Both the position numbers and the translations under genes were made by a program. From a virus, in IMG/VR virus record IMGVR_UViG_3300027706_000269, positions 27,817-91,816 of that record: a DNA stretch of 64,000 nucleotides, one strand, 5' to 3'. How positions within the stretch are numbered: the stretch's first letter is position 1; every line of letters starts with the position of its first letter. Shown piece after piece: positions 23,317 to 63,511 of this stretch. The notes under the pieces are model-generated. The model made no database searches and was not told where the DNA came from. It saw only the letters and a list, made by a program, of their open reading frames with translations.

Positions 23317-23507
23317 CACAACTTCTCCTGTTGAGAGGGGGTTGTATGAACGCGCTGGTCGGGCAAGAAGCCAAGGCGAACCGCGCTCTGTTCCAGCCCG
23401 GAAGACCCGAGGGTACGGACGATGGCGGCCGCAAGGATGGTGGTGATTTCGCCAGCACGGGCGCTGGCGCTCATCTCTGCCGGAGATGCAAGTTCGAGGT
23501 TCTTCAT
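23316..23507 (-). CDS. Small hypothetical protein (contains motif copy 1)
   Basis: GGAG RBS, MKNLELASP..., stop overlaps DUF2924 start. Confidence 0.5.
   Translation of the reverse strand: MKNLELASPAEMSASARAGEITTILAAAIVRTLGSSGLEQSAVRLGFLPDQRVHTTPSQQEKL
23346..23375 (-). promoter_or_regulatory. Conserved bipartite motif, copy 1
   Basis: CTTGGCTT-CTTGCCCGAC-CAGCGCGTTCAT, about 30 nt upstream of DUF2924. Confidence 0.7.
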
Positions 23508-23611
23508 GACGGCTCCAGGGAATAGAAACCGCCAGGGATGATGTGCGCAGCTTTCCGAAGCGGATCGCAACGCCGATCAATCGGCGCGGCGCGCTGACGC
23601 CTCAACGGCGG

Positions 23612-25867
23612 TCAGACGTCTTCGGTGACTGCTTCGATCGCAGCGCTGCGCGTGTCGCTGTCATCGACGATCACTCGATCGAGTGGGGTCAGCTTCAGCT
23701 GCCACGCCCGCGTGCCTGGGACCTTTTCGAGATAGTCGCGCCAGGGCGAGTGCTTGCCGGTGAAGAGGTTGGCCGGAGACGTGCAGCCCGTGCCGGCCAT
23801 CAGCGCCTTCGTGTTGACGTGGGGCGTTCCTGCGGCCCAGGCCTCCACCAGCCGCTGCAAGACGGCGATCCTTGCTTTGCCCGTGACCCGCCACGGCGCC
23901 TTGCCCGGAAGGTACAGCGTCGCCGCGTGACCATCGGGGGCGACCTTGAGCGTCACCGTCGACCCGCCCATGGCCGCCAGTTGCCCGTGGCGATAGGCCA
24001 CCTTCAGCCGGTCCAGGTCGATGGCGCTGCCGTTGCCCGCATCGGCGAGCACATCCTCGATGGGAATGACGACATTGGTGCCGGCGAATGGCAGCGGCGT
24101 CGAGGTCGTCGTCAACACCACGCCCGCCACCGGGCGCGGACGAAGCCTCAGCGCAGCGTCGACTTTCGCGTACGCGCGCTCGTGGGACATCCTGGAGGCG
24201 AAGTACAGCGCCACGGCATGGCCGTCGATGTCGATCTCGCCAAGGAACACCGGCTCGTCGTCGAAGTGCCGACTGCGGGGTCCTTTCAAGGCCGATCCCA
24301 GCGCCGTGATCAATTCCTCGCGCAACCAGTCCAGCTGCACCTTCCAGCGCCGGGCGAGACGGGCCGGCATGACCACGTCGTTGCCCGTCAGAGGATCGCG
24401 GTAGCGCACGGTGTCGGCATCGGCGCAGCGTTCGAGCACCACCTTCATCGGCTCGCCTTCGTCGACGGGGACCGACAGCTCGGCGATGCGCTCGCCTTCG
24501 ATGAGGATGCCTTCGTCCTGCAGCCGCTCGATGTCGATGCCGAGCTTATGCAGTGCGAAGCCGTCCATCGGGCTGCTGGCGCTCTCCAGAAGCCGGGCCA
24601 CCTGCGCGATCAGGCTCGGATCGTCCCGCCCGCAGCCCGGGTGCAGCGGTTTGCGCACCCCCAGGGCCTCGAGCAGTTGCATCCCGGCGCGGCGCAGGCG
24701 TTGGTCTTTCTCGCCAGCCAGACTGCAGCGACCGGGCTCGGCCAGCACGATGGCCAGCGGGGTGGCCGCCGTCTCCCCCTCGAACACCAGTTCGGCCACC
24801 AGGGTCACACCGAGCAAGGCACCAGGCTGCGCGAAGGGGTGGTTGCCCCAGCGCTCGTCGATCACCTCGTGCAGTTCTGCGCCGCTGTCGATGTGCAGCG
24901 TGACGGCGTCCGTGGCATGCCCAAGCAAAGCCTTGGCTTCGGTCAGATACAGCCGCTCGATGCGGCCCCCGTCGATGCGCGGCTTGGTGTCCTTCAGTGG
25001 CCGCGCAAAGCGCGACAGATCGTAGCGCGAGCGGTCCAGCGGACGGTTCGACAAGGGGGCCTTGAAGCCGTGCCGGGACAGCACGTTGGCCAGCGGCGCA
25101 CGGGTGCCCAGCGTCGGGGCAAAGACTTCGACGAGCCCACGATGAGGCGCGTAGATGAGGGTGGCGTCGCGCGCCGGGAAGTAGAAGAAGCTCTTGCGCT
25201 GGCGGTTGCGCATCTCCACCGCGGCCACCTGATCGCCGGCGAAGCGCACCACGAGGTAGTGCGTCGTCTGGGTCTGGCCTTGCCGGTCCGGCTCCTCCAC
25301 GGCCACGTGGATGACCTCGCAGGGCTCAGCCAGCCGCATCGCCTCGGTGAGTTGCGCTTCCAGCCGGTCCTTGACCGCATCGTTCCACAGGAAGGGCGGC
25401 GCCTCGCCAGGCACGTCGAACGCGTCGTGCAGGCGTTTGAGCCCCTTCAGGTCCTGGGTGTTGACGATGGACTCGGCAGTGTCGAAGAGCTTGATCGAGG
25501 CCTCGCTGTGCGTGCGCATCCACACCGCGCGACCGACCTCGCCGCCTTCTTGCGCACGAAACCGTGCGAGCAGGTCCTCGTCGTAGAGCTGCTCGGCGAC
25601 GGTGGCGAGGATGGCGGCCCCGCGTGCGGTGCTCAGGCGCAGCACCCGCAAGGCTTCGCGCTCGGCCGGATCGCGCCGCTCCTTGCGCAGGTGCTTGATG
25701 TGCTCGATGAGGGCAGCGCTCAGCTCCTTGTCCGCCCGCGTCCAATCAAACCCGCGCTGCAGTCCCAGGCACTCGGGCAGGCCGGCGAACAGCTTGAGGA
25801 CTGAGGCCGGCACGCGCTCGACCAGCTCCAGCAGACAGTGTGCGTTGGTCAGGGTCTTCTTGCCCAT
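23612..25867 (-). CDS. Large conserved hypothetical protein, C-terminal winged-HTH-like; candidate regulator
   Basis: 751 aa, strong codon bias, GGAGG RBS; 25 bp downstream of PIN gene. Confidence 0.75.
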   Translation of the reverse strand: MGKKTLTNAHCLLELVERVPASVLKLFAGLPECLGLQRGFDWTRADKELSAALIEHIKHLRKERRDPAEREALRVLRLSTARGAAILATVAEQLYDEDLLARFRAQEGGEVGRAVWMRTHSEASIKLFDTAESIVNTQDLKGLKRLHDAFDVPGEAPPFLWNDAVKDRLEAQLTEAMRLAEPCEVIHVAVEEPDRQGQTQTTHYLVVRFAGDQVAAVEMRNRQRKSFFYFPARDATLIYAPHRGLVEVFAPTLGTRAPLANVLSRHGFKAPLSNRPLDRSRYDLSRFARPLKDTKPRIDGGRIERLYLTEAKALLGHATDAVTLHIDSGAELHEVIDERWGNHPFAQPGALLGVTLVAELVFEGETAATPLAIVLAEPGRCSLAGEKDQRLRRAGMQLLEALGVRKPLHPGCGRDDPSLIAQVARLLESASSPMDGFALHKLGIDIERLQDEGILIEGERIAELSVPVDEGEPMKVVLERCADADTVRYRDPLTGNDVVMPARLARRWKVQLDWLREELITALGSALKGPRSRHFDDEPVFLGEIDIDGHAVALYFASRMSHERAYAKVDAALRLRPRPVAGVVLTTTSTPLPFAGTNVVIPIEDVLADAGNGSAIDLDRLKVAYRHGQLAAMGGSTVTLKVAPDGHAATLYLPGKAPWRVTGKARIAVLQRLVEAWAAGTPHVNTKALMAGTGCTSPANLFTGKHSPWRDYLEKVPGTRAWQLKLTPLDRVIVDDSDTRSAAIEAVTEDV

Positions 25868-25892
25868 GCTCCCTCCGATACAGCGCGGTGCC

Positions 25893-26465
25893 TCACATGG
25901 CCATGACCCATGGGCGCATCACCGCCACCGATTGCGTCAGCCCCTGCGCCAGCAGGGTGTCCAGGTAGTCGTCCGCCGACTTGGGCGGGTTCTTCAGACT
26001 GCGGCGGTGGCGGGCGACTGCTTCGAGCACGCCGGCCGGGTGCAGATCCAGCAGATCGACGATGAAGTCGTCCGGATGCTGCGCCGCGAGGTTGTAGGGC
26101 TTGAGCGCCTCGGGCGGGAAGTCCTTGAGGTTGAAGGTCACGATGAGGCTGGCGCCGGCGTGGATGGCGGCCGCCACCACATGGCGGTCGCTGGGGTCGG
26201 GCAACTCGATCGAGGCAATCAGGTACTCGAAGCCGGTGACCAGGCAGTCGCGGACGTGGGCGTTCATCAGCCGCCGCGTGCGCTCGAGCTGTTCGACCGA
26301 GAGATCGGGACGGCTGGCCAGCACGTGGCGCATCCACTCGTCGTGAATCATGTCGCTCCAGCGCGCCCGGTACAGGTCCGACAGCGCCAGATGCATCAAC
26401 AGATCGCGCAGGGGCGCGGGATAGAGCACGCAGGCGTCGTAGACGACGGTGAAGTGCGAGCTCAT
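25893..26465 (-). CDS. PIN-domain ribonuclease toxin (PIN_3 family)
   Basis: VVYDACVLYP, LPDPSDRHVVAAA, IVTFNLKDFP. Confidence 0.92.
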   Translation of the reverse strand: MSSHFTVVYDACVLYPAPLRDLLMHLALSDLYRARWSDMIHDEWMRHVLASRPDLSVEQLERTRRLMNAHVRDCLVTGFEYLIASIELPDPSDRHVVAAAIHAGASLIVTFNLKDFPPEALKPYNLAAQHPDDFIVDLLDLHPAGVLEAVARHRRSLKNPPKSADDYLDTLLAQGLTQSVAVMRPWVMAM

Positions 26466-26469
26466 CCGC

Positions 26470-26931
26470 TCAGTACCCCATGCCGAGTTCCTGGGCCTGC
26501 GCGGCCAGTTCGTCGAGGGCCTTGCGGCGCTCGGCATCGATCCGGTGCTTGTAGGCGATCACGTCCTGGTAACGCACCCGACGATGCGTGCCGATCTTGT
26601 GGAACGGGATCTCGCCTTTTTCCAGCAACTGCACGAGGAAGGGCCGCGAGACGTTGAGCAGGTCGGCCGCTTCCTGCGTGGTCAGTTCGGCGTGGATGGG
26701 GATGACGGTGACGGCATTGCCCTGGCCGATCTCGGTCAGCACGTCCAGCAGCAACCGCAGCGCCGTCGTCGGCAGCGTCACTGAGCGCACGGCGCCCTTG
26801 TCGTCGTGGAAGTCGATCTGCTGGGTCTCGGCGCGCGTTTGCAGCACCGTCGAGAGCACGCGCCCGGATTCCCGAGCCAGCGCGACGTCCTCGGCTGAGG
26901 GCAGCACCTTGGGGATGGTGGGGGTCGTCAT
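26470..26931 (-). CDS. Excisionase-like HTH_17 DNA-binding protein (antitoxin partner of PIN)
   Basis: ELTTQEAADLLNVSRPFLVQLLEKGEIPFHKIGTHRRV. Confidence 0.92.
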   Translation of the reverse strand: MTTPTIPKVLPSAEDVALARESGRVLSTVLQTRAETQQIDFHDDKGAVRSVTLPTTALRLLLDVLTEIGQGNAVTVIPIHAELTTQEAADLLNVSRPFLVQLLEKGEIPFHKIGTHRRVRYQDVIAYKHRIDAERRKALDELAAQAQELGMGY

Positions 26932-26967
26932 GGGGCTCTCCTGGTCGGATCGGATGCGATAGGGGTC

Positions 26968-27004
26968 ATTGTAAACGAAACAAACGAAATCGCAATAACC
27001 GAAA
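26968..27004 (-). promoter_or_regulatory. Sigma70 promoter of the HTH-PIN-751aa operon with direct-repeat operator
   Basis: TTGCGA-16bp-TACAAT; AAACGAAA repeats at 26973 and 26982 fill the spacer; AACCGAAA at 26997. Confidence 0.7.
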
Positions 27005-27025
27005 AGACATTGTTCTAACCATACA

Positions 27026-27038
27026 AATCAAAGACTTA
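27026..27038 (+). promoter_or_regulatory. IHF-binding consensus
   Basis: AATCAA-AGAC-TTA matches WATCAANNNNTTR in an AT-rich switch region. Confidence 0.5.
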
Positions 27039-27157
27039 AGGCGCATGCCTGGCTCGCCACCGGTCGGGCCGCGCCCCGTGATCGCCTAAAAAGCACTCGC
27101 CCAAGCCCAAAGCGCCGGGCAATTCAATGAGGGCTCCCAAACAGAAGGAGCCCCGCC

Positions 27158-27421
27158 ATGCAGAAACACCCTGCATCTGTTCGATCCACCCGGAACTTCT
27201 ATCCGGCACCACCCGAAGGCACGACGCCGGTCGCGCTCAACGAGTTCGAACTCGCCGCCCGCTGGCGACTGTCCGTCCACACCCTGCGCCGCTGGCGGCA
27301 GGAGCAGCTGGGCCCGGTCTTTTGCAAGCTGGGCGCACGCGTCACCTACCTGATCAGCGACGTCGAGGCCTTCGAGCGGCGCGTCTCGCGCTACTCGACC
27401 TTCGCTCGGGCATACCAGTGA
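27158..27421 (+). CDS. AlpA/excisionase-like HTH regulator, first early gene
   Basis: LNEFELAARWRLSVHTLRRWR..GPVFCKLGARVTY. Confidence 0.85.
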   Translation: MQKHPASVRSTRNFYPAPPEGTTPVALNEFELAARWRLSVHTLRRWRQEQLGPVFCKLGARVTYLISDVEAFERRVSRYSTFARAYQ

Positions 27422-27431
27422 GGGGGCGGCC

Positions 27432-27911
27432 ATGAGCGACCTCACCCTCTACCCCGCCGACATCGCCGCGATGTCCGTCGGCCAGCTGGCTCAACTCCCG
27501 CCCGCCCAGAAGGCGCAGATCAGCCGCAACCTCGACGAAGCGCTCGCCTGGCTCAAGCAAGCCCGCGCCAAGTTCGACGCTGCGCTGGAGGCCGCCTACG
27601 GCGAGCAGGCCCGTGCTGCCCGCCTCGAGGCGGGCAAGGACTTCGGCGTCGTGCACCTGCAGGACGGTGCGCTGCGCGTGACGGTCGATGTCCCGAAGCG
27701 CGTGTCCTGGGACCAGGCGCAACTGGCGGCGATTGCCCGGCGCATCGCCGCCGCCGGCGAGAAGGTCGAGGACTACCTCGACGTCGAGTACTCCGTCTCG
27801 GAATCGCGCTTCTCCAACTGGCCGCCGGCACTGCGCGCCGGGTTCGAGGCCGCCCGCACCGTCAAGCCCGGCAAGCCCACGTTCCGGCTGGCCCTCGTCT
27901 CGGAGGAGTGA
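27432..27911 (+). CDS. Conserved phage early protein
   Basis: PKRVSWDQAQL, ARTVKPGKPTFRL; operonic. Confidence 0.8.
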   Translation: MSDLTLYPADIAAMSVGQLAQLPPAQKAQISRNLDEALAWLKQARAKFDAALEAAYGEQARAARLEAGKDFGVVHLQDGALRVTVDVPKRVSWDQAQLAAIARRIAAAGEKVEDYLDVEYSVSESRFSNWPPALRAGFEAARTVKPGKPTFRLALVSEE

Positions 27912-27914
27912 TCC

Positions 27915-29518: not shown

Positions 29519-29521
29519 GCC

Positions 29522-30148: not shown

Positions 30149-30159
30149 GAGGAGGGTCA

Positions 30160-34551: not shown

Positions 34552-34552
34552 G

Positions 34553-35174: not shown

Positions 35175-35557
35175 TGAGAAGAGTCTTCAAGACGCGCCAC
35201 TTCGCTCGTTGGATGCGCAAGACCGAACTGACAGACGCCGGGTTGTGTCAAGCGGTCGAGGAGATGGCCGCGGGCCTCATCGATGCCGACCTGGGCGGTG
35301 GCGTGGTGAAAAAGCGCGTGGGCTTGGCTGGCCGCGGCAAGCGTGGTGGCGCGCGCACCTTGATCGCCACCAACAAGGGCGATCGCTGGTTCTTCGTCTA
35401 CGGCTTCGAGAAAAACGAGCGGGCCAACATCGATGACGAGGAACTGGAAGCGCTGCAGGATCTGGCCGCCGATCTGCTGGCCCGTCCCGCGCGCCAGTTG
35501 GATGAATCCGTTGCCGACGGAACATTGCAGGAGATTTGCCATGACAAACGAGCCTAA
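35174..35557 (+). CDS. RelE/HigB-family toxin (COG4737-like)
   Basis: RVFKTRHFARW, DADLGGGVVKKR, GKRGGAR, YGFEKNERANI. Confidence 0.9.
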   Translation: MRRVFKTRHFARWMRKTELTDAGLCQAVEEMAAGLIDADLGGGVVKKRVGLAGRGKRGGARTLIATNKGDRWFFVYGFEKNERANIDDEELEALQDLAADLLARPARQLDESVADGTLQEICHDKRA

Positions 35558-35864
35558 GTCCAAGAGCCGCCTGCTCGAAGCCGTTCACGAAACGGCGCGC
35601 GACCTGCATCGCCTGGGCTTCATCGACAAGCGCAAGATGCGCAAGTACGACGCGCTGTGCCTGGAGCCGGTGCATGAATACGACGCTGAGAAAGTGCGCG
35701 CCTTGCGCGAACGCCTGCACTTGAGTCAGGCCGTGCTGGCATCGGTCCTCAACACCAGCGTCTCGACCGTGCGCAAGTGGGAAGTGGGCGACAAGAAGCC
35801 CAGTGGTCCCTCGCAGAAGCTGCTCGACCTCATCGAACGCAAGGGGCTGGAGGCGGTGCTCTGA
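35541..35864 (+). CDS. HigA-like XRE-HTH antitoxin
   Basis: LRERLHLSQAVLASVLNTSVSTVRKWEVGDKKPSGPS. Confidence 0.9.
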   Translation: MTNEPKSKSRLLEAVHETARDLHRLGFIDKRKMRKYDALCLEPVHEYDAEKVRALRERLHLSQAVLASVLNTSVSTVRKWEVGDKKPSGPSQKLLDLIERKGLEAVL

Positions 35865-36044: not shown

Positions 36045-36142
36045 ACGGGTCCTTCCTGGCGACCCAGCCATGCGGGGGGCGCGAGCGCGGCGCTTCGATA
36101 GCGTCAGGGTGCAAACCGAGGTTTGCAGGGTTTGCGGTTTGC
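36045..36142 (+). other. Lambda-like cos (cosQ, cosN, candidate terminase-binding repeats)
   Basis: ACGGGTCCTT (cosQ = GGGTCCT) ... TGCGGGGGGCGCGAGCGCGG; then TGCAAACCGAGGTTTGCA palindrome and 3x GGTTTGC. Confidence 0.65.
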
Positions 36143-36228
36143 AGCCCTCCAGCCCGAGACCTTCTCCCCGACACCCCCAGCCCGCCCACGGTCCGCCGTC
36201 GGCGGGCTTCTTCGTTTCCGAGGCACCG

Positions 36229-37674
36229 ATTCTGGACACGCTCGCCGTCACGTACCGCAAGGTCGAGACGCTGATCCCCTACGCCCGCAATCCGCGCACG
36301 CACAGCGACGAGCAGATCGCGCGCATCGCCGCCAGCATCGCCGAGTTCGGCTGGACCAACCCGATCCTGGTCGATGGCGAGCACGGTGTGATCGCCGGTC
36401 ACGGCCGGCTGCTGGCCGCACGCAAGCTGGGGCTCGCCGAGGTGCCGGTGATCGAGCTTGCGCACCTGACGCCTGCGCAGAAGCGCGCCTACGTGATCGC
36501 CGACAACCGGCTCGCGCTCGATGCCGGCTGGGACCAGGCGATGTTGGCGCTGGAGTTCGCCGAACTGGCCGACGCCGGCTTCGATCTGGACCTGACCGGC
36601 TTCTCGGCCTCCGAGATCGAAGGCCTGCTCGACGCCATCGAGAAGACGGAACCGTCCGCCGAAGAGGACACGAGCGCTTTGGTCCGCGACCCGGACGAGG
36701 ACGACGTCACACCGCCCGCGGTGGCGGTCACACGCCCCCGCGATCTGTGGCTGATCGGTGAACACCGACTGCTCTGCGCCGACAGCCGCGACGCGGCCGC
36801 CGTCGCGCGCCTCCTCGAGGGCGAGCGGGCGCACCTGCTCTTCACCAGCCCACCGTATGCCAACCAGCGCGACTACACCACCGGCGGCATCGCGGACTGG
36901 GACGCGTTGATGCAGGGCGTGTTCGGCGCTGCCCGCGCGGCACTGCGCGAGGACGCGCAACTCCTGGTCAACCTCGGGCTCGTGCATCGCGACAACGAGT
37001 GGCAGCCGTACTGGGACGGCTGGATCGAGTGGATGCGCACGCAGGGCTTTCGGCGCTTCGGCTGGTACGTGTGGGACCAGTCGGTGACCGTGCCCGGCGA
37101 CTGGGCCGGGCGGCTGGCGCCCCGCCACGAGTTCGTCTTCCACTTCAACCGACGCTCGCGCAAGCCGAACAAGATCGTGCCCTGCAAGTGGGCCGGGCAC
37201 GAGACGCACCTGCGCGCCGACGGATCGTCCACCGCGATGCGCGGCAAGGACGGCAAGGTCGGCGCCTGGAACCATGCCGGACAGCCCACGCAGGCGTTCC
37301 GCATCCCGGACTCGGTCGTCGAGGTGACGCGCCAGCGCGGCCGCATCGGTGAAGGCATCGATCATCCGGCGGTGTTCCCGCTGGGCCTGCCGAAGTTCTT
37401 CATCGAGGCCTACACCGACGCGGGCGAGATCGTCTTCGAGCCGTTCGCGGGCTCGGGCACCACGCTGCTGGCCGGCCAACTCACCGGCCGCCCGGTACGC
37501 GCCATCGAACTCGCTCCAGAGTACGTGGACGTCGCGCTGCGCCGCTGGCTGCAGCACCACCCGGGCACGGTGCCGGTGCTGGAGGGCAGCGGCCGGACCT
37601 TCGACGAGGTGGCGGCCGAACGTACCGTCAGTAGTGGTAGCGCCCCTGGAGGAACTCGACGCGATCGGCCTTGA
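36229..37674 (+). CDS. ParB-N fused DNA methyltransferase 1 (beta class, SPPY); probable non-AUG start
   Basis: YARNPRTH..IAGHGRL..IADNRL; FTSPPY; FEPFAGSGTT. Confidence 0.9.
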   Translation: MLDTLAVTYRKVETLIPYARNPRTHSDEQIARIAASIAEFGWTNPILVDGEHGVIAGHGRLLAARKLGLAEVPVIELAHLTPAQKRAYVIADNRLALDAGWDQAMLALEFAELADAGFDLDLTGFSASEIEGLLDAIEKTEPSAEEDTSALVRDPDEDDVTPPAVAVTRPRDLWLIGEHRLLCADSRDAAAVARLLEGERAHLLFTSPPYANQRDYTTGGIADWDALMQGVFGAARAALREDAQLLVNLGLVHRDNEWQPYWDGWIEWMRTQGFRRFGWYVWDQSVTVPGDWAGRLAPRHEFVFHFNRRSRKPNKIVPCKWAGHETHLRADGSSTAMRGKDGKVGAWNHAGQPTQAFRIPDSVVEVTRQRGRIGEGIDHPAVFPLGLPKFFIEAYTDAGEIVFEPFAGSGTTLLAGQLTGRPVRAIELAPEYVDVALRRWLQHHPGTVPVLEGSGRTFDEVAAERTVSSGSAPGGTRRDRP

Positions 37675-37900: not shown

Positions 37901-38171
37901 GGTCGGCGTCCTGCTTGAGCTGGGCGAGCGTCGTGGGCTTCAGGCTTGTCGTGCGTGCCCGGTTGAGGGCCGTGAGCAGCCGTTCGGCGTTCTTGGCCGA
38001 GCGCAGCAGGTGCGCCGTTTCCATCAAGCCTTCGAGCTCATCGGCCGCGATCATCGCCACGGCTCCTCCCGAGCGACGGCGCACCACGATGACCTCGCGA
38101 TCGTCCACGGCGCGGTCCATCAGCGCCTTGAGCTGCTCGCGCGCCTGGCTGTAGGTGGTTTCGATGGTCAT
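37890..38171 (-). CDS. yefM: Phd/YefM antitoxin
   Basis: TTYSQAREQLKALMDRAVDD, ETAHLLRSAKNAERL. Confidence 0.93.
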   Translation of the reverse strand: MTIETTYSQAREQLKALMDRAVDDREVIVVRRRSGGAVAMIAADELEGLMETAHLLRSAKNAERLLTALNRARTTSLKPTTLAQLKQDADLEA

Positions 38172-38187
38172 GGCGGCACCTCTGGAA

Positions 38188-38208
38188 TTGGACAGAAGTA
38201 TTGTACAG
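38188..38208 (-). promoter_or_regulatory. yefM-yoeB -10 and operator
   Basis: TGTACA and TGTCCA cores 13 bp apart; TACAAT -10; overlaps the RBS of MTase 2. Confidence 0.65.
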
Positions 38209-38211
38209 GAA

Positions 38212-39483
38212 ATGAACGCCCACTGGCTGGCCGATCGCATCGAGCTCTGGCCGATCGACAAGCTGCTGCCCTACGTGCGCAATGCCCGCCAGCACTCGGA
38301 CGAGCAGATCGCCCAGATCGCGGCCTCCATCGCGGAGTTCGGCTTCGTCAATCCCATTCTCACCGGCGCCGACGGTGTGCTGGTCGCGGGCCATGGGCGG
38401 CTTGCCGCCGCGCGCAAGCTGGGCCTGCCCACAGTGCCGGTGGTCGTGCTCGATCACCTCACGCCGACCCAGCGCCGCGCCCTGGTGCTCGCGGACAACC
38501 GGCTCGCGGAACTCGCGACCTGGGACGATGCCCTGCTGCGCATCGAACTGGAGGCGCTGCAGGACGATGGCTTCGATCTCGATCTCACCGGATTCGACGC
38601 CGATGCACTGGCAGAACTGCTGGCCGATGAGGAACCACAGATCGAGGGCCGGACGGAGGACGATGCCATCCCGGAGATGCCGGAAGAGCCGGTGTCTCGG
38701 CCGGGCGACGTCTGGCGGCTCGGGCCGCACCGCCTGGTCTGCGGGGACGCGACCACCGCCGAGGCCTATGCGCGCCTGTTTCCGGACGGCGAGCGGGCGG
38801 ACATGGTGTTCACCGATCCGCCCTACAACGTGAACTACGCCAACAGCGCGAAGGACAAGCTGCGCGGCAAACACCGCCCCATCCTCAACGATGCGCTGGG
38901 CGAAGGCTTCTACGATTTCCTCTTTGATGCGCTGGCGCTGATCATGGCGCACACCCGAGGCGCGATCTACGTCGCCATGTCCTCCAGCGAACTGGACACG
39001 CTGCAAGCGGCCTTCCGCGCCGCCGGCGGGCACTGGTCGACCTTCATCATCTGGGCCAAGAACACCTTCACGCTGGGCCGCTCGGACTACCAGCGCCAGT
39101 ACGAGCCGATCCTCTACGGCTGGCCCGAAGGCGCGACGCGCCACTGGTGCGGCGACCGCGACCAGGGCGACGTCTGGCAGATCAAGAAGCCAGCGAAGAA
39201 CGATCTGCACCCGACCATGAAGCCGGTGGATCTGGTCGAGCGGGCCATCCGCAACTCCAGCCGCCCCGGCGACGTGGTGCTCGACCCCTTCGGCGGCTCG
39301 GGCACGACCTTGATCGCCGCTGAGAAGGCCGGGCGCGTGGCGCGGCTGATCGAGCTCGACCCGAAGTATGCGGACGTGATCGTGCGGCGCTGGCAGGACT
39401 GGACGGGCCAGCAAGCCACCCGCGAGGCGGATGGCCTGGCCTTCGATCAGGCGGCGAGCGACTCGTCGGCGATCGCGCAGTGA
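38212..39483 (+). CDS. ParB-N fused DNA methyltransferase 2 (DPPY, N6-adenine)
   Basis: YVRNARQH, AGHGRL, FTDPPYNV, HPTMKP, LDPFGGSGTT. Confidence 0.93.
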   Translation: MNAHWLADRIELWPIDKLLPYVRNARQHSDEQIAQIAASIAEFGFVNPILTGADGVLVAGHGRLAAARKLGLPTVPVVVLDHLTPTQRRALVLADNRLAELATWDDALLRIELEALQDDGFDLDLTGFDADALAELLADEEPQIEGRTEDDAIPEMPEEPVSRPGDVWRLGPHRLVCGDATTAEAYARLFPDGERADMVFTDPPYNVNYANSAKDKLRGKHRPILNDALGEGFYDFLFDALALIMAHTRGAIYVAMSSSELDTLQAAFRAAGGHWSTFIIWAKNTFTLGRSDYQRQYEPILYGWPEGATRHWCGDRDQGDVWQIKKPAKNDLHPTMKPVDLVERAIRNSSRPGDVVLDPFGGSGTTLIAAEKAGRVARLIELDPKYADVIVRRWQDWTGQQATREADGLAFDQAASDSSAIAQ

Positions 39484-39533
39484 ATCACGAACCCGGTCAG
39501 ATTGGGCAGCCCGCGCGGGATGTGCTGCCCCAT
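39447..39533 (-). pseudogene. C-terminal remnant of a conserved phage hypothetical gene
   Basis: MGQHIPRGLPNLTGFVIHCAIADESLAA*; resembles (from recall) the C-terminus of a gene usually at this position. Confidence 0.4.
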
Positions 39534-39539
39534 CGCGAC

Positions 39540-40127
39540 TCAGGCAAGCCGGTAGACGCGCTCGCCGCCCGGGGATCTCTCGGAGACGATCGTCAGGCCC
39601 AGTTTCTTCTTCAGCGCCCCGGCCAAGGTGCCGCGCACCGTGTGCGCCTGCCAGCCGGTGCTGTCCATGATCTGGCGGAGGGTGGCGCCTTCGGGACGCT
39701 GCAGCATCGCGATCACCTGCGCCTGCTTGCTGTGGGCGCGGGGGCGGCGCGGCTCGGCGCTGCGATGCGCATCCTGCGCCCAGGCCGATTCGGCGGCGTT
39801 CACCGCCGCCTCCAGGTCGGCCTCGTCGCGCGCCGTCTGCGCCTGCTCGGCCCGGGCGATCACCGCACCGAGTTTCGCAACGAAGGACTGGCGCGGGGCG
39901 GTGCGGGCACCCGGGCGCGGCACGCCCAAGGCCTCGTAGCCTGCGTCGGCAACGACCCAGACCTCGCCCTGGCGGGCGATCAGGGCGCGGTTGGCCAGGC
40001 CGTCGAGCACCTTGCGGCGGGCACCGCCTTGGATGTGCTCGGGGAACCAGTCGATTCGGCCGTCGCTGTGCTCGAGCGCATGGGCCAGGATCGCGTGCTG
40101 GGCGGGGGTCAGGGTGATGGTGCTCAT
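39540..40127 (-). CDS. DUF3489 winged-HTH protein
   Basis: SKQAQVIAMLQRPEGATL..TGWQAHTVRG..KKKLGL..RVYRL. Confidence 0.9.
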   Translation of the reverse strand: MSTITLTPAQHAILAHALEHSDGRIDWFPEHIQGGARRKVLDGLANRALIARQGEVWVVADAGYEALGVPRPGARTAPRQSFVAKLGAVIARAEQAQTARDEADLEAAVNAAESAWAQDAHRSAEPRRPRAHSKQAQVIAMLQRPEGATLRQIMDSTGWQAHTVRGTLAGALKKKLGLTIVSERSPGGERVYRLA

Positions 40128-40161
40128 GGTCTGCTCCTGGATAGGGATGGATCGGCGCGAG

Positions 40162-40407
40162 TCAGTCTTCCCAGAGGTGCTCGCCATCGAGGCTGATCCA
40201 CAGGCGCGCATCGCGCGCGGTGGCCATCTCGCGCACCGCCAAGCCGGTTTTGAGGTGGGTGCCGGTCTTGCCGGTGAAGTCGTAACGCTGGCCGTCGTGC
40301 ATCACGGTCGCTGGGCCTTGCTCGTCGAACTCGATTCGGATCAGGCGGGTGCCGAGGGCGTTTCCGTTGGTGTCGGTGACCTGGGGTTGGCGGATGCGCA
40401 GGGTCAT
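40162..40407 (-). CDS. Small hypothetical protein
   Basis: AAGGAGCAGACCATG RBS/start; preceded by motif copy 2. Confidence 0.75.
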   Translation of the reverse strand: MTLRIRQPQVTDTNGNALGTRLIRIEFDEQGPATVMHDGQRYDFTGKTGTHLKTGLAVREMATARDARLWISLDGEHLWED

Positions 40408-40443
40408 GGTCTGCTCCTTGGTGCGTGGTGATTGGGTGAGGTG

Positions 40444-40473
40444 ATGAACGCGCTGTTCGCGTGAGAAGCCAAG
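40444..40473 (-). promoter_or_regulatory. Conserved bipartite motif, copy 2
   Basis: CTTGGCTT-CTCACGCGAA-CAGCGCGTTCAT. Confidence 0.75.
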
Positions 40474-40500
40474 CGTTCTTGCTTGGCTTCGCATTGCTCG

Positions 40501-40767
40501 TCAGACCTTGCGCAACACCGAGATGCCGGCCTGCGCCAGTTCGAGCGCGGCGGCGTGGAAGGCCATCTCGCCGACCCAGGGCGCAGCCCTTGCGTCGTCA
40601 AACAAGCGGTCGATGACCGGCCGGGCCTTGGCGCGCATCGCGGCGCAGGCGGCTTCGAGCTCGTCGCGGCTGGCGGCGGCCACCTCCTTGCGGCAAGTGC
40701 GCACCAGCACGGTCAGGGCGGCCTCGGCGAGCTTGGTGGCGAGAAGGTCGGGGATGTGGGGGTTCAT
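40501..40767 (-). CDS. Small helical hypothetical protein
   Basis: AAAGGA RBS, MNPHIPDLL...; preceded by motif copy 3. Confidence 0.7.
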   Translation of the reverse strand: MNPHIPDLLATKLAEAALTVLVRTCRKEVAAASRDELEAACAAMRAKARPVIDRLFDDARAAPWVGEMAFHAAALELAQAGISVLRKV

Positions 40768-40804
40768 CGGGCGTCCTTTCGGTCGGGTGGTTCGGAGTGA
40801 CGTG

Positions 40805-40834
40805 ATGAACGCGCTTCTCGCCCGTGAAGCCAAG
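40805..40834 (-). promoter_or_regulatory. Conserved bipartite motif, copy 3
   Basis: CTTGGCTT-CACGGGCGAG-AAGCGCGTTCAT. Confidence 0.75.
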
Positions 40835-40887
40835 CGTTTTCTGCGGGTGTTGGCCAAGAACTGACGATGACTTGATCGAAGAGGGCC

Positions 40888-41418
40888 ATGGGCATCTCGA
40901 TTCGCGCCTACGCCCGCCACCGTGGGGTATCGGACACCGCCGTGCACAAGGCCATCCGCACCGGGCGCATCACGCCCGAGGCGGACGGCACCATCGACCC
41001 AGACCGGGCCGACCGCGACTGGACCCGGAACTCCGAGCCGCCGAAGGCGGGAACGGGCTCCCGGACCGTGAAGGTGCGGGTGGCGGAGGATCCGGCCCCC
41101 AACCTCGCCACCGGCCTGCCCGCTGGCGGCACCACGCTCGTGCAGGCGCGCACGGTCAACGAGGTGGTCAAGGCGCAGACCAACAAGGTGCGGCTGGCCC
41201 GCCTCAAGGGCGAACTGGTCGATCGCCACCAGGCCATCGCGCATGTGTTCAAGCTCGCCCGTACGGAGCGCGACGCTTGGCTCAACTGGCCGGCGCGGAT
41301 CTCGGCGCAGATGGCGGCCCGGCTCGGCGTGGAGGCTCACACCCTGCACGTGGCCCTGGATGCCGCCGTGCGCGAGCACCTCGCCGAGCTCGGGGAACTC
41401 AAGGTTCGGGTCGATTGA
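40888..41418 (+). CDS. Terminase small subunit (Nu1-like)
   Basis: N-terminal HTH (SIRAYARHRGVSDTAVHKAI), coiled coil, GELVD; coupled to the large subunit. Confidence 0.8.
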   Translation: MGISIRAYARHRGVSDTAVHKAIRTGRITPEADGTIDPDRADRDWTRNSEPPKAGTGSRTVKVRVAEDPAPNLATGLPAGGTTLVQARTVNEVVKAQTNKVRLARLKGELVDRHQAIAHVFKLARTERDAWLNWPARISAQMAARLGVEAHTLHVALDAAVREHLAELGELKVRVD

Positions 41419-44520: not shown

Positions 44521-46061
44521 TGGGTTGGCGCACCTCACAAACGCCAGCAAGCTGGCTCAGCACCCTCAAGCGCCGGCTGCTCGGCACCAGCCCCACCTAC
44601 GACGGCGTGGGCGGCGGCCGCAGGGCCGTGGCCTGGCAGGTGGGCAACCCCGGGGCGGTCGCGGCGCTGGCTTTCACGCAGAACGAACTGCGCGCCAAGA
44701 GCCGCGATCTCGCCCGGCGCAACGCCTGGGCGGCCGCGGGCATCGAGGCGTTCGTGGCGAATGCCATCGGCACCGGCATCAAGCCGCAGAGCATGGTGCA
44801 GGACCCGGCCGTGCGCGAGGCCATCCACGCGTTATGGTGGGACTGGGTGGAGGAGGCCGACGCCGCAGGACTCACCGACTTCTACGGCCTGCAGGCGCTC
44901 GCCTGCCGCGCGATGCTCGAAGGCGGCGAGGCGCTGGTGCGCCTGCGCTGGCGCCGTCTCGAGGACGGTCTGCCGGTGGGCCTGCAGCTGCAGGTGCTCG
45001 AGCCGGAACACCTGCCGACGACGCTCGACCGCGACCTGCCCTCGGGCCACGTCATCCGCGCCGGCATCGAGTTCGACCGGCTCGGGCGGCGCGTGGCCTA
45101 TCACCTGACCCGCTCGCATCCGGGCGACGGGAGCCTGGCGCCGATGTCGGGCACGGGCGCCTCCGCGGGAGGTCTCGACACCGTGCGCGTGGGTGCCTCC
45201 GAGGTCATCCACCTGTTCCGCCCGCTGCGCCCGGGGCAGATCCGCGGCGAGCCGTGGCTTGCGCGGGCGCTGGTGAAGCTGCACGAGCTCGACCAGTACG
45301 ACGACGCGGAACTGGTGCGCAAGAAGACCGCGGCGATGTTCGCCGGCTTCATCACGCGGCTCGCCCCCGAGGACACCCTGATGGGCGAAGGGCTGCCGGA
45401 CGCGCAGGGCGCGGCGCTCGCCGGACTGGAACCCGGCACGTTGCAGATCCTGGAGCCGGGCGAGGACATCAAGTTCTCGGCGCCGGCCGACGTGGGCGCG
45501 AGCTACGGCGAGTTCATGCGCCAGCAGTTCCGGGCCGTGGCCGCCGCCATGGGCATCACCTACGAGATGCTCACCGGTGATCTCACCCAGGTGAACTACT
45601 CCAGCATCCGCGCGGGGCTGCTGGAGTTCCGCCGCCGTTGCGAGGCCATCCAGCACGGGGTGATCGTGCACCAGCTGTGCCGCCCGGTGTGGCGGGCCTG
45701 GATGGAGCAGGCCGTGCTCGAAGGGGCGCTGAGCCTGCCCGGCTACGCCCGCCGCCGGCGCGCGTACCAGGCCGCCAAGTGGATCCCGCAGGGCTGGCAG
45801 TGGGTCGATCCCTTGAAGGAGTTCAACGCGCTCAAGCTCGCGATCCGCGCAGGGCTGATGAGCCGCTCGGAGGCGATCTCGGCCTACGGCTACGACGCCG
45901 AGGACATCGACCGCGAGATCGCGGCGGACAACGCCCGCGCCGATGAACTGGGGCTGGTCTTCGACTCGGATCCGCGGCACGACCAGACACCGGCTGCCGC
46001 GCCTCAATCACCGCAGAAGGATGGTTCAGATGCTGATGCCGTAGAGCCTACGAGCGCTTGA
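44520..46061 (+). CDS. Portal protein, lambda family
   Basis: LRAKSRDLARRN, RPGQIRGEPW, VNYSSIRAGL, WVDPLKE. Confidence 0.95.
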   Translation: MGWRTSQTPASWLSTLKRRLLGTSPTYDGVGGGRRAVAWQVGNPGAVAALAFTQNELRAKSRDLARRNAWAAAGIEAFVANAIGTGIKPQSMVQDPAVREAIHALWWDWVEEADAAGLTDFYGLQALACRAMLEGGEALVRLRWRRLEDGLPVGLQLQVLEPEHLPTTLDRDLPSGHVIRAGIEFDRLGRRVAYHLTRSHPGDGSLAPMSGTGASAGGLDTVRVGASEVIHLFRPLRPGQIRGEPWLARALVKLHELDQYDDAELVRKKTAAMFAGFITRLAPEDTLMGEGLPDAQGAALAGLEPGTLQILEPGEDIKFSAPADVGASYGEFMRQQFRAVAAAMGITYEMLTGDLTQVNYSSIRAGLLEFRRRCEAIQHGVIVHQLCRPVWRAWMEQAVLEGALSLPGYARRRRAYQAAKWIPQGWQWVDPLKEFNALKLAIRAGLMSRSEAISAYGYDAEDIDREIAADNARADELGLVFDSDPRHDQTPAAAPQSPQKDGSDADAVEPTSA

Positions 46062-46329
46062 GGTCGCGATAGAAGTTCTCGTGCGGGCCAACCGCTTCGA
46101 GATAGATCAAGCGGACTTCGTGATCGACGGTATAGCCCAGCAGGTAGAGCTGATTCTGGCTGCGGAACTTGTAGACGAACAGATCGGCGAGATCACCCTT
46201 CTTGCGTTCCCCGACGTTCGGGTCGGCCGCGATGACTTCGGTGGCGGCATCGACATCGGCCGCGACGTTGTCATGCAGCTTCTTGTAGGCCCGGGCAAAC
46301 CGACGGGTTTGCTTGAGACCGTAGCTCAT
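46048..46329 (-). CDS. RelE/ParE-family toxin
   Basis: QTRRFARAYKKL, GERKKGDL, VYKF, GPHENFYRDLKR. Confidence 0.9.
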   Translation of the reverse strand: MSYGLKQTRRFARAYKKLHDNVAADVDAATEVIAADPNVGERKKGDLADLFVYKFRSQNQLYLLGYTVDHEVRLIYLEAVGPHENFYRDLKRS

Positions 46330-46562
46330 GCCTTGCGGCGGGACCGGGGCACGAAGAGGGTCGCGTCCTCACGCGGCTCGGCCATCGACGCCAGCGATTC
46401 GGCGATGAAGCCGACCGGCAGATCGGGGTTGTCCAGCGCGGCCCGGCCGACCTTGGCCCAGTACTCGACTTGGCCGGCGATGGTTCGATGCTCGGCCAGC
46501 GCCTCGGCGCGCGCTTGTTCGTAAAGCTTTTGGTCGATGCGGATGGAAATCGACGTCGTCAT
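46326..46562 (-). CDS. ParD-like RHH antitoxin
   Basis: SIRID..RTIAGQVEYWAKVGRAALDNPDLP. Confidence 0.88.
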   Translation of the reverse strand: MTTSISIRIDQKLYEQARAEALAEHRTIAGQVEYWAKVGRAALDNPDLPVGFIAESLASMAEPREDATLFVPRSRRKA

Positions 46563-55052: not shown

Positions 55053-55054
55053 CC

Positions 55055-57678: not shown

Positions 57679-57680
57679 CC

Positions 57681-58466: not shown

Positions 58467-58483
58467 AACCCGCAGGACCTCCC

Positions 58484-58711: not shown

Positions 58712-58917
58712 GCAAGGACGTGACCGTCACCATCGCCCACGTGCGCGCCGCAGGCCTGTGCGTGCACGGCACGCGCACCTGGTTCGCGCGCCAAGGCCTG
58801 GACTTCCGTGACTTCCTCGCCCGGGGGCTGCCCGCCTCCGTGCTGCTGGCCACCGGCGACGCGATGGCCGCACGCGTGGTCGAGGTCGCGCAGGCCTGCC
58901 ATGAGGAGCCGCGCTGA
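58708..58917 (+). CDS. Small tail protein
   Basis: GLCVHGTRTWF..LLATGDAMA. Confidence 0.75.
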   Translation: MSKDVTVTIAHVRAAGLCVHGTRTWFARQGLDFRDFLARGLPASVLLATGDAMAARVVEVAQACHEEPR

Positions 58918-61190: not shown

Positions 61191-61801
61191 TGGAGACCAC
61201 CCTCGACCTGCACCCGCAGCCGCGCATCGACGTGCACTTGCTCACCCTCGACGAGCCCCAACACTGGCGCGAGGAATGTCTGGCGAGCCTCGTCGGCGCG
61301 CCGATCCGCCTGCATCTGCTGCCAGGCATCCCGGGGCGTGTGGGGCAGGCCCGCGCGGCAGGCTTCGCGCGAGGGGCCTTGCCGCTCGTGTCCTTCGTCG
61401 ATCCCGACGACCGCTATGAGGCTGCGGCCTTCGCGGCCCTGGCCGATGCGCTCGATGCCTACCCGCAGGCGGTGCTGGCCTACACCGACGAGGCCCTGAT
61501 CGACGAGCACGGCGACAGCCTCGGCGTGCGGCGACTGGCCTACAGCGCCTTGCAACACGCCCACTCGGCCAGCCACGTCCACGGCCTGATCGTGATGCGC
61601 CGAAGCGCCGTCGAGCCGGTGCTGACACGCATCGCCGATCTCGACGCCGGCACCGACTGGCTGCTCACCCGCCTCGTGGCCCGGCAGGGCAGCGTGTTGC
61701 ACCTGCCCCTCGTCGGCCGCCACTGGCGGCAGCACCCGAACCAACACCACCGCCGCGCTCTGCCTGACCGGCGGGCGATGACCCACCTTGAGAGGAGTTG
61801 A
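61190..61801 (+). CDS. Glycosyltransferase family 2 (GT-A)
   Basis: ARAAGF..VSFVDPDDRY DxD motif; TGATG-coupled to the tail gene. Confidence 0.75.
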   Translation: METTLDLHPQPRIDVHLLTLDEPQHWREECLASLVGAPIRLHLLPGIPGRVGQARAAGFARGALPLVSFVDPDDRYEAAAFAALADALDAYPQAVLAYTDEALIDEHGDSLGVRRLAYSALQHAHSASHVHGLIVMRRSAVEPVLTRIADLDAGTDWLLTRLVARQGSVLHLPLVGRHWRQHPNQHHRRALPDRRAMTHLERS

Positions 61802-61805
61802 ACCC

Positions 61806-62156
61806 ATGCCACAGACCGATCCGAACCTGGGCCTCGTCTACGGCTGGACGCTGGGCGAATCCGGCTGGCACACCGGGATGGACGCGAACCTGAAGCGCCT
61901 GGGCGCCATCGTGGGCCTGTCGGTGACGAGCCGCACCACGACCACGCCGCCCGCTAGTCCCACCGAGGGCGATCGCTACATCGTGTCGGCCGGTGCCACC
62001 GGCGCCTGGGCCGGCAGGACCGACCAGATTGCAGTGTGGGTCAATGGTGCCTGGGAGTACCACGCCCCGAAGGTCGGCTGGCTGGCCTTTATTGCCGCCG
62101 AGGACAGGCTCGCCGTCTACAAGGCCGTCGGCTGGAGCGCCGGCATTTCCGTCTGA
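61806..62156 (+). CDS. DUF2793 tail-associated protein
   Basis: PPASPTEGDRYIV..ATGAWAG..QIA..W..P..GW. Confidence 0.88.
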   Translation: MPQTDPNLGLVYGWTLGESGWHTGMDANLKRLGAIVGLSVTSRTTTTPPASPTEGDRYIVSAGATGAWAGRTDQIAVWVNGAWEYHAPKVGWLAFIAAEDRLAVYKAVGWSAGISV

Positions 62157-62179
62157 ACCCTTACCCCGATCCGTCATCC

Positions 62180-62213
62180 CCGAACCCGCCCGCGTGGCGG
62201 GTTCGTCGTTTTT
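62180..62213 (+). terminator. Hairpin / terminator before lysis cassette B
   Basis: CGAACCCGCC-CGCGT-GGCGGGTTCG then TCGTTTTT. Confidence 0.6.
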
Positions 62214-62224
62214 GGAGACCGCCC

Positions 62225-62527
62225 ATGACTGAACCGACCCAAGCTCCCGCCCTCGTCGAGAACATGCTGCTCCTGCGCCGCGAGGACTTCGAAGACCTGC
62301 TCGACCGCGCCGCCGAACGCGGGGCCGAGCGGGTGCTCGCGCACCTCGGCCTCGAGAATGGCCACGCAGCAAGGGACATCCGCGAACTGCGCGATCTGCT
62401 CGAAGCCTGGCGCGACGCGCGCCGCACGGCATGGCAGACCACCATCAAGGTGGCCACGACCGCCATCCTCGCCGCCCTGCTGGTCGGGGGCGCCCTCAAG
62501 CTGAAGCTGATGGGAGGTGGCCAATGA
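62225..62527 (+). CDS. DUF6127-like membrane protein
   Basis: Near-identical to 15052-15360. Confidence 0.75.
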   Translation: MTEPTQAPALVENMLLLRREDFEDLLDRAAERGAERVLAHLGLENGHAARDIRELRDLLEAWRDARRTAWQTTIKVATTAILAALLVGGALKLKLMGGGQ

Positions 62528-63000
62528 TCGAGACCCTGCTCGGTGGGCTGCTGGGCGGGGCCTTCCGCCTCGCGCCGGAGATCCTCAAGTGGCTCGACCG
62601 CAAGGGCGAGCGCAGTCACGAACTCGCCATGCAGGACAAGGCCTTGGAGTTCGAGAAACTGCGCGGGGCAAGCCGCATGGCCGAGATCGGCGCGAGTGCA
62701 GATGCGGCGTGGAATACCGGGGCCATCGAGGCCTTGCGCGAGGCCGTGGCCGCCCAGGGACAGCGATCGGGCGCGCGCTGGGCCGATGCGCTCTCAAGCA
62801 GCGTGCGGCCCGTCATCACCTACTGGTTCATGGCGCTGTACTGCGCGGCCAAGACTGCCGCCTTCGTGGGCGCCGTCGAGGCCGGGGCGGACTGGATCCC
62901 GGCGATCCAGGCGGCCTGGACCGAGGCCGACCAGGCCCTGTGGGCCGGGGTGCTGAACTTCTGGTTCCTCGGCCGCGTGTTCGACCGGGTGCGGCCGTGA
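62524..63000 (+). CDS. Holin-like membrane protein
   Basis: Near-identical to 15357-15833. Confidence 0.7.
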   Translation: MIETLLGGLLGGAFRLAPEILKWLDRKGERSHELAMQDKALEFEKLRGASRMAEIGASADAAWNTGAIEALREAVAAQGQRSGARWADALSSSVRPVITYWFMALYCAAKTAAFVGAVEAGADWIPAIQAAWTEADQALWAGVLNFWFLGRVFDRVRP

Positions 63001-63461
63001 TTGCGGTACCCCAAGCGGCCATCGAGCTGGCCAAACGCTTCGAGGGCTTCCACCGCGTGCCCAAGCACGATCCCAACCGCGCCTATCCGTACATCTGTCC
63101 GGCCGGCTATCCGACGATCGGCTATGGTCACCTCTGCGATCCGAAGCACCCGCCGATCACGGAAGGCGAGGCCGAGGCCTACCTCGCCCAGGATCTGAGG
63201 GTGGCGCTCGCCGCCACGTTGCGCTACTGCCCTGTACTGGCAATCGAGCCGGAAGGGCGGCTCGCGGCCATCGTGGACTTCACCTTCAACCTCGGCGCCG
63301 GGCGGCTGCAGACATCGACGTTGCGGCGGCGGGTCAATCAACGGGATTGGATCGCAGCAGCAACGGAACTGCGCCGATGGATCTACGGCGGCGGAAAGGT
63401 ACTCCCGGGCTTGGTAGCGCGCCGAGCTGCCGAAGCCACCTGGCTGCTCGGCAACACCTGA
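62997..63461 (+). CDS. Endolysin, GH24 lysozyme
   Basis: FEG..YICPAGYPTIGYGH..FNLGAG..GLVARR. Confidence 0.92.
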   Translation: MIAVPQAAIELAKRFEGFHRVPKHDPNRAYPYICPAGYPTIGYGHLCDPKHPPITEGEAEAYLAQDLRVALAATLRYCPVLAIEPEGRLAAIVDFTFNLGAGRLQTSTLRRRVNQRDWIAAATELRRWIYGGGKVLPGLVARRAAEATWLLGNT

Positions 63462-63481
63462 TGCAAGGCAGGTCAGACGCG

Positions 63482-63511
63482 CTTGGCTTTTCGCCGGAAC
63501 AGCGCGTTCAT
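63482..63511 (+). promoter_or_regulatory. Conserved bipartite motif, copy 4
   Basis: CTTGGCTT-TTCGCCGGAA-CAGCGCGTTCAT, 29 nt upstream of 63540. Confidence 0.75.

Follow-up and report, generated by a model that had tools for sequence, protein, structure and literature searches.

The CII protein of phage lambda acts at a TTGC-N6-TTGC site that flanks a poor -35 element ahead of a usable -10, at the promoters P_I, P_RE and P_aQ, and each anti-CRISPR (acr) operon has a single strong promoter of the ordinary sigma70 kind, equipped with inverted-repeat operators. Promoters of the extracytoplasmic function (ECF) type read GGAAC-N16/17-CGTT (EcfG) or GGAAT-N18-GTT (SigR). Integron cassettes have no promoter of their own and carry at their 3' end an attC site of imperfect inverted repeats (R''/L''...L'/R'), on which a tyrosine integrase acts. 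In mycobacteriophage L5, the gp71 repressor is said to bind 13-bp asymmetric sites, the stoperators and the P-left operator, and to block elongation where it is bound. T4-type phages carry promoter-early stem-loop (PeSL) cassettes with strong sigma70-like early promoters, as reported by Arbiol et al. (2010, PMC2839356). Here we analyze a bipartite DNA motif, CTTGGCTT-N10-MAGCGCGTTCAT, that recurs in a stretch of 64,000 nucleotides (nt; hereafter the window), which corresponds to bases 27817-91816 of the 91,816-bp provirus record IMGVR_UViG_3300027706_000269 of IMG/VR. On sequence grounds we judge, with a probability of roughly two in three, that this motif forms the core of a portable promoter/operator module whose geometry is that of the sigma70 family but whose -10 is non-consensus; the module would serve the integration operon and a set of swappable accessory gene cassettes.

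Motif copies and the genes behind them

An exact pattern scan of the window returned exactly four matches (Table 1), with no further copies at up to three mismatches and none in 100 shuffles of the window. The 10-bp spacer varies in sequence, while 19 of the 20 specified positions are invariant across the four copies, and each copy is followed on its own strand by a Shine-Dalgarno (SD)-like sequence and, 28-37 nt past its end, by an ATG. The scan reproduced the copy number, positions, strands, spacer and invariance given in a preliminary description of this DNA, and its statement that each copy is co-oriented with a nearby start codon was confirmed. Coding on the opposite strand (ATGAACGCGCTG...) was ruled out by an in-frame stop in copy 2. 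The preliminary description also placed copy 1 inside an open reading frame (ORF). Such a frame does exist mechanically (23316-23570, minus strand, 84 amino acids [aa]), but it carries no coding signal: upstream of DUF2924-type copies, GC content by codon position in this frame is 0.67/0.51/0.66, with no enrichment at the third position (GC3), whereas the real downstream genes have 0.77-0.86 at that position. Because the enrichment is absent, the 84-aa frame is probably not a gene.

The full record holds eight exact copies because it contains two related AcaML1-like prophages in tandem, as revealed by self-comparison. Prophage A spans about 1-44,011 and prophage B about 48,476-91,816 of the record, or 1-16200 and 20600-64000 in window coordinates, and the two are 73-88% identical over aligning blocks. 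Three of the window copies have a homologous partner in A, which has one extra cassette, and the copy at the right end lies in B.

Among 372 unique instances of the motif, 359 have a downstream ORF and 332 an SD, and most starts lie 28-43 nt from the motif end, so that the tie to gene starts proposed for the window holds in this larger set. The motif was also present in 77 of 77 loci retrieved independently of it, through the DUF3489 protein, and all 240 copies in these loci lay on the gene strand, against 0 on the other. When 62 unique upstream regions from this protein-retrieved set were aligned, the information maxima fell exactly at the two blocks and at the SD/ATG. The genes served belong to a limited number of recurrent families: DUF2924, with the recombinase (77 instances), the two-domain DUF3489 protein (73), DUF6900 (53), a 119-aa ORFan (29) and a 122-aa ORFan (26), which we designate c0 to c4 in that order. 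Rarer families include the 88-, 81- and 96-aa genes of the window, and a 1160-aa DUF499 protein and DUF932 occur as rare cargo. The canonical array begins with DUF6900 or the 88-aa gene and continues with DUF3489, optional cassettes and the 122-aa gene, subject to insertions and deletions. The link between the DUF2924-recombinase operon and small accessory cassettes, first suggested by the window copies, is seen across a whole phage family.

The exact 30-mer, which has 11 free positions, occurs in at least 119 IMG/VR stretches and in at least 120 stretches of GTDB species genomes. Among the matches listed, the named hosts are mostly Burkholderiales, Rhodocyclales and Xanthomonadales/Lysobacterales, with a few Alphaproteobacteria, Ca. 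Nitrospira defluvii and a few metagenome-assembled genomes (MAGs) of other phyla; some of the matches in the latter look like chance matches. Acidithiobacillus phage AcaML1 (JX507079) is the only characterized phage among the matches listed, and the four exact copies in its genome share one strand. The 30-mer ahead of its integration module equals window copy 1 at every position, including the spacer, and several GTDB genomes have the same 30-mer ahead of theirs. In Nitrospira defluvii, five copies lie inside one 50-kb stretch and none elsewhere in 4.3 Mb, and 38 further genomes contain 1-11 copies each, with 0 for a reversed-pattern control. In complete genomes, the copies are confined to one prophage each. 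Because of this restriction and the empty control, the motif is a DNA-level signal of prophage modules and not a common host repeat, a possibility that the preliminary description had raised against its own proposal. Literature searches (motif letters, DUFs, AcaML1) returned no description of the motif, in agreement with its having been called undescribed.

Culturable lysogens of this phage family include Acidithiobacillus caldus ATCC 51756 (AcaML1), Caldimonas manganoxidans ATCC BAA-369, Thiomonas bhubaneswarensis DSM 18181 and Cupriavidus cauae MKL-01. The type strain Tepidicella xavieri DSM 19605 (NZ_SNYL01000005.1) carries copies whose spacers are identical to those of window copies 1, 2 and 3 and whose spacing is nearly that of the window (361 and about 17,000 bp). 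Judging from these matches, this strain probably holds a very close relative of prophage B.

Promoter-like geometry and competing readings

In a looser scan, positions 28-29 were variable, reading GCGTTCAT or GCGTTACT, with GCGTTACT mostly ahead of the 122-aa family. The invariant parts of the motif are CTTGGCTT(C), AGCGCGTT and T30, the last of which was fixed in the search pattern yet retained in the looser scan, and GAAC is semi-conserved. If TTGGCT is taken as -35 to -30, a 17-bp spacer follows and then GTT(C/A)(A/C)T at -12 to -7, with the invariant AGCGC block at -17 to -13. TTGGCT agrees with the sigma70 consensus TTGACA at 4 of 6 positions, TTG included. Between the motif and the SD/ATG lies a C/A-rich, partly conserved leader, in which the best conserved position, 36, holds a pyrimidine in 99% of cases; 76% have a purine at position 37. 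A pyrimidine-purine (Y-R) step at -1/+1, 7 nt past the hexamer, would agree with these frequencies. A promoter is required at some copies, because copy 3 and the DUF2924 copy of prophage A lie in divergent intergenic DNA: copy 3 is 53 bp from the divergent start of terS, and no sigma70-like site was found in 39400-41000. The early switch region of the phage has a canonical TTGCGA-16-TACAAT site.

The motif was also compared by hand with textbook consensus sequences for sigma54, sigma32, sigma28, sigmaE, LexA boxes, CtrA and MerR-type promoters. LexA boxes, CtrA and MerR-type long-spacer promoters gave no fit, and for sigma54 (GG at -24 and GC at -12, 10 bp apart; TGGCAC-N5-TTGC), block 1 contains TGGC, but GA, not GC, stands 12 nt past the first G in the consensus.

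Joints between otherwise unrelated sequences often fall at the edges of the motif. Of 929 pairs that share the downstream gene but have unrelated DNA upstream, 392 lose similarity no more than 5 nt from the 5' edge of the motif and 800 no more than 20 nt from it; of 63 pairs that share the upstream DNA and differ in the downstream gene, 20 lose it no more than 5 nt from the 3' edge. These mosaic joints support the earlier idea that the repeats serve as points of cassette exchange. Prophages A and B themselves differ by two indels in the array. In the first, B has the 81-aa gene as an insertion that separates the leader from DUF3489, and GGAGCAGACCATG flanks this insertion, occurring at the start of the 81-aa gene and again at the start of DUF3489. 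In the second, the 122-aa cassette of A is mostly deleted in B, where a remnant is left.

Under the promoter/operator reading, the module would be about 65 nt long in AcaML1-like temperate phages and would consist of the motif, the C/A-rich leader, the SD and the ATG. One copy would drive the integration operon (DUF2924, serine recombinase and a third gene), and one copy would serve each accessory cassette, both in the antisense array beside the terminase genes and at the gene at the far prophage end. RNA polymerase carrying a factor of the sigma70 family would initiate about 7 nt past the motif. Since the hexamer has no -11 A, and since -17 to -13 is filled by the invariant AGCGC, a sequence-specific factor is probably needed for initiation or gates it; this factor would contact both blocks, whose centres are about 20 bp apart, from a single face of the helix. 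The shared 30-mer would in addition provide an identity patch for cassette exchange by recombination.

Several observations weigh against this reading. The hexamer at 17 bp, GTTCAT or GTTACT, has the T at -7, but it has a T where sigma70 needs the -11 A, and a sigma70 consensus scan found no site at any motif copy, as expected from the remark in the preliminary description that a sigma70 -10 is absent. The host consensuses for sigma54, sigma32, sigma28 and sigmaE all misfit the motif in the hand comparison, and Pfam/PHROG annotation revealed no sigma factor or RNA polymerase gene in the phage. Most copies have a co-oriented gene upstream, where read-through combined with an operator or leader role is possible. 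As for the joints, a rapid loss of intergenic similarity would also put many 'breakpoints' near the motif. Finally, no candidate reader co-varies with the motif. The motif of AcaML1 is identical though its DUF3489 protein has a different N-domain, resembling that of the 'class 2' tandem winged-helix proteins, which are distant (about 40% identity), and phages of this class, which have DUF2924 and tandem winged-helix genes, lack the motif in 16 of 16 records, even at three mismatches. Because of these two observations, no co-variation is demonstrable for DUF3489.

A bolder form of the promoter reading appears doubtful, though it merits consideration. It holds that the motif defines a private promoter class, unusable by the host sigma70 holoenzyme alone, and that a phage-encoded specificity factor, a monomeric two-domain DNA binder of the DUF3489 or DUF2924 type acting as a sigma-like protein or obligate activator, would switch on the integrase and the swappable, possibly anti-defence cassettes as one regulon in a very widespread prophage family, with the motif doubling as a recombination joint through which any gene could enter the regulon.

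It is unlikely that the motif is an operator only, namely a stoperator- or Aca-like site at which DUF3489 or DUF2924 acts as a repressor. The cassettes would then be silenced or pulsed, and transcription would begin at another place or from a weak promoter that overlaps the site. An operator would suit the asymmetry of the site, its multiple copies, its strictly single orientation relative to transcription, the co-oriented gene upstream of most copies and the predicted DNA-binding folds of both candidate repressors. The set also includes the DUF3489 gene, whose copy often has an extra inverted block 1, the inverted AAGCCAAG lying within 40 nt upstream in 36 of 73 DUF3489-type copies (at 9 nt in 33), versus 9 of 77 DUF2924-type copies. 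This inverted block may, however, be merely the terminator of the preceding cassette, because the hairpin that it forms at copy 2 is stable (the 66-nt stretch holding it folds at -26.3 kcal/mol, z -3.8) and lies just past the stop codon of the preceding gene. An operator alone also leaves the fixed -35/17-bp/-10/YR layout unexplained, and both the array-head copies and the DUF2924 copy of prophage A are found in divergent intergenic DNA without other promoter-like sequence. Furthermore, no DUF3489 homologue was found in 16 of 38 genomes with the motif before DUF2924; these are mostly single-copy, and many are incomplete MAGs, but they include the complete genome of gamma proteobacterium HdN1.

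A role at the RNA level is improbable. The motif would then belong to the polycistronic cassette transcripts, as a conserved leader at their 5' end or a site of processing, and would control stability or translation, not initiation, as its fixed distance to the SD/ATG, the partly conserved leader behind it and the co-oriented tandem arrays of copies might suggest. Yet the spacer between the blocks is variable and no pairing is conserved between or around them, where a 4-bp GAAC/GTTC is the only one possible and GAAC is not invariant; a stable hairpin occurs at one class of copies only; an Rfam search with the motif gave no match; and the array-head copy would still require a promoter. Least probable of all is an integron-like recombination site at which the serine recombinase and DUF2924 would capture or shuffle cassettes: cassette content does vary among relatives, with mosaic joints located at the motif, the recombinase operon invariably has a copy next to it and DUF2924 has a RAMA-like DNA-binding domain, but the motif lacks the dyad symmetry around a central dinucleotide that serine recombinase sites require, the A/B indels do not run from motif to motif (one ends inside a gene, the other at a duplicated ribosome-binding site), and homologous recombination at a 30-65 bp repeat would be enough, as reported for T4-type PeSL cassettes (PMC2839356).

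Candidate readers and gene context

Of the proteins that the preliminary description proposed as readers of the motif, the 751-aa protein cannot fill this role, because prophage A has the same motif without it. It is also missing from most relatives checked, and it has no Pfam match and no polymerase motif, matching phrog_37634 only. DUF6362 is an unlikely reader, being absent from AcaML1 despite the four exact copies there; the positional analogue in AcaML1 is a different helix-turn-helix (HTH) protein. DUF6362 is present in 16 of 20 long records, and its sigma-region-4-like HTH is below threshold.

For the DUF3489 and DUF2924 proteins, the case for a reader is divided, since predicted DNA-binding folds are present in both and co-variation with the motif is found for neither. 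The AlphaFold2 model of the DUF3489 protein (predicted local distance difference test [pLDDT] score, 85.5) consists of a long helix joining two winged-helix domains, each of which contains invariant helices, and its Foldseek matches are winged helices of the MarR, ArsR, Fur and TFE types. In the AlphaFold2 model of DUF2924, a helical N-terminal domain is predicted, and the domain at the C terminus is similar to the RAMA domain with which MPND binds DNA (Foldseek probability, 0.97-0.99; the match is an MPND-DNA complex). This modelled RAMA-like domain suggests an accessory DNA-binding role for DUF2924 alongside the serine recombinase.

The corresponding genes of class 2 phages have other upstream sequences. 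Upstream of class 2 DUF2924 (L406-L417), a diverged homologue of the 3' half of the motif (GCCCGACCAATGCCGTCATGCAAC) lies behind a sigma70-like CTGACG-N18-TACACT. About 55 nt upstream of the class 2 winged-helix gene (L326-L405) is a different conserved element, which is single-copy and not a regulon; it comprises a terminator hairpin, CTYGRSSTCGTAGAAGG and then a CCGCGATGGTCGCGG-type palindrome.

Prophage A has a conserved counterpart of the third integration-module gene, and a homologue of A's version adjoins the module in 7 of 14 single-copy loci. Among the cassettes, the 96-aa gene has 12 relatives, each with its own motif copy ahead; it had no match in Pfam or PHROG. The genes that precede it encode tail proteins, a DUF2793 tail-fibre-like protein and an unknown PHROG, which does not confirm its earlier description as post-lysis. 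An ESM Atlas search with the small cassette proteins gave no usable lead, and anti-defence roles for these small genes are conjecture. The 1160-aa DUF499-domain gene lies immediately behind a motif copy in three loci (for example, L138:831-4310, minus strand, and also L179), one of which is a Nitrospira defluvii prophage. Large cargo is therefore able to join the set. DUF499 is associated with BREX-type defence loci.

Prophages A and B differ in the cargo beside the integration module as well as in the cassette array. A variable cargo block in B (23612-26931, minus strand) beside the integration module encodes the 751-aa unknown protein, a PIN_3 protein and an HTH_17 protein, and it is replaced by other genes in A. 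Between the prophages is an island of about 4 kb with low GC (53-56%; window 16200-20600), which encodes a 318-aa unknown protein in addition to the methylase and specificity genes given in Table 1. Directly upstream of the antisense array are two ParB-N/DNA methylase fusion genes (36070-37674 and 38155-39483, plus strand), an arrangement also seen in AcaML1; the motif contains GCGC and may be a substrate of these putative methylases. A ParE-like toxin/ParD-like antitoxin pair (46048-46562, minus strand) is inserted in antisense orientation into the late operon, with the portal gene on one side and the S49 protease gene on the other; it has no motif copy.

Table 1. Features of the window (window coordinates; R-M, restriction-modification)
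Feature	Coordinates	Strand	Match or family	Remarks
HsdS-like specificity protein	17626-18330	-		inter-prophage island
Type I R-M-like N6 DNA methylase	18324-19940	-		inter-prophage island
Terminator-like hairpin	20623-20636			downstream of 154-aa gene
Third integration-module gene, 154 aa	20653..21117	-	phrog_14161, E 2e-44	
Large serine recombinase, 473 aa	21494..22915	-	Pfam Resolvase + Recombinase + Zn_ribbon_recom	
DUF2924 protein, 147 aa	22873..23316	-	Pfam DUF2924, E 9e-50	first gene of integration operon
Motif copy 1	23346..23375	-	exact match	ATG 29 nt downstream behind AGGAG; precedes DUF2924/serine recombinase operon
Tandem winged-helix protein, 195 aa	39540..40127	-	Pfam DUF3489	DUF3489 is C-terminal
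81-aa cassette gene	40162..40407	-	family c8	between leader and DUF3489; insertion relative to prophage A
Motif copy 2	40444..40473	-	exact match	ATG 36 nt downstream; precedes two-gene unit (81-aa gene + DUF3489)
Perfect 10-bp hairpin	40465..40490	-		3' arm is the CTTGGCTT block of copy 2; 11 nt past 88-aa stop codon
88-aa cassette gene	40501..40767	-	family c6; phrog_36268	
Motif copy 3	40805..40834	-	exact match	ATG 37 nt downstream; first in antisense cassette array
Terminase small subunit (terS)	40888-41418		phrog_57	
Motif copy 4	63482..63511	+	exact match	ATG 28 nt downstream; right end of prophage B, behind tail genes
96-aa cassette gene	63540..63830	+	family c7	behind motif copy 4

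Comparison with known systems

Unlike integron attC sites, the motif is not an inverted repeat, lies 5' of genes with an SD at a fixed distance and is accompanied by a recombinase of the serine type. With ECF promoters, it shares the block spacing, the high conservation of both blocks and CGTT/GTT in the downstream block at the ECF -10 position (CGTT lies 17 bp past TTGGC). It differs from them in that its -35 contains no AAC core, that annotation of the phage yielded no gene for an ECF sigma, the one Sigma70_r4_2 match, in DUF6362, being sub-threshold, and that its hosts span several classes with different ECF sets. As in acr/Aca loci, small fast-evolving ORFans lie beside the gene of a conserved small DNA-binding protein, near head genes and with a shared promoter type; in contrast to those loci, the site here is asymmetric and each cassette has its own copy.

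Among temperate phages, lambda CII provides a model in which a few non-consensus promoters couple the integrase with other leftward (antisense) transcripts through a shared signal around the -35, but the TTGC-N6-TTGC pattern is absent from the motif. A weak CII-like PHROG match is given by an HTH_3 protein (35433-35864), and no CII homologue is tied to the motif. The stoperators of L5 share with the motif their number, their asymmetry, their single orientation to transcription (here 240 versus 0 in 77 loci) and their location in short intergenic spaces of a temperate phage. The L5 sites differ in reportedly being 13 bp long, contiguous and spread across both genome arms, whereas the motif is a 30-bp bipartite element with promoter geometry and a fixed distance from the starts of accessory genes.

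The motif also parallels the PeSL cassettes (PMC2839356). In both cases a conserved short regulatory unit is repeated ahead of many small non-essential ORFans, its copies mark the points where related phages differ by insertion, deletion or replacement, and a stem-loop is attached to the unit at some copies. There are differences as well. PeSL cassettes belong to lytic T4-type phages, and the motif to temperate lambda-like/AcaML1-like prophages of Beta- and Gammaproteobacteria; the motif lacks a sigma70 -10 and also heads the integration operon; and its stem-loop occurs mainly at one array position, the DUF3489 copies (36 of 73), not at every unit.

The motif provides a simple, highly specific tag for a gene set in a very common, almost unstudied prophage family, whose hosts include Burkholderiales, Rhodocyclales, Xanthomonadales, Acidithiobacillus and even Nitrospira. 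It marks accessory cargo genes, predicts their start sites to within a few bases and offers a handle for finding the regulator that would couple integration with cargo expression. If a phage-encoded factor reads the motif, it would represent a new way to steer host RNA polymerase; if host polymerase needs no such factor, the motif would be an unusual kind of promoter, able to function in different bacterial classes.

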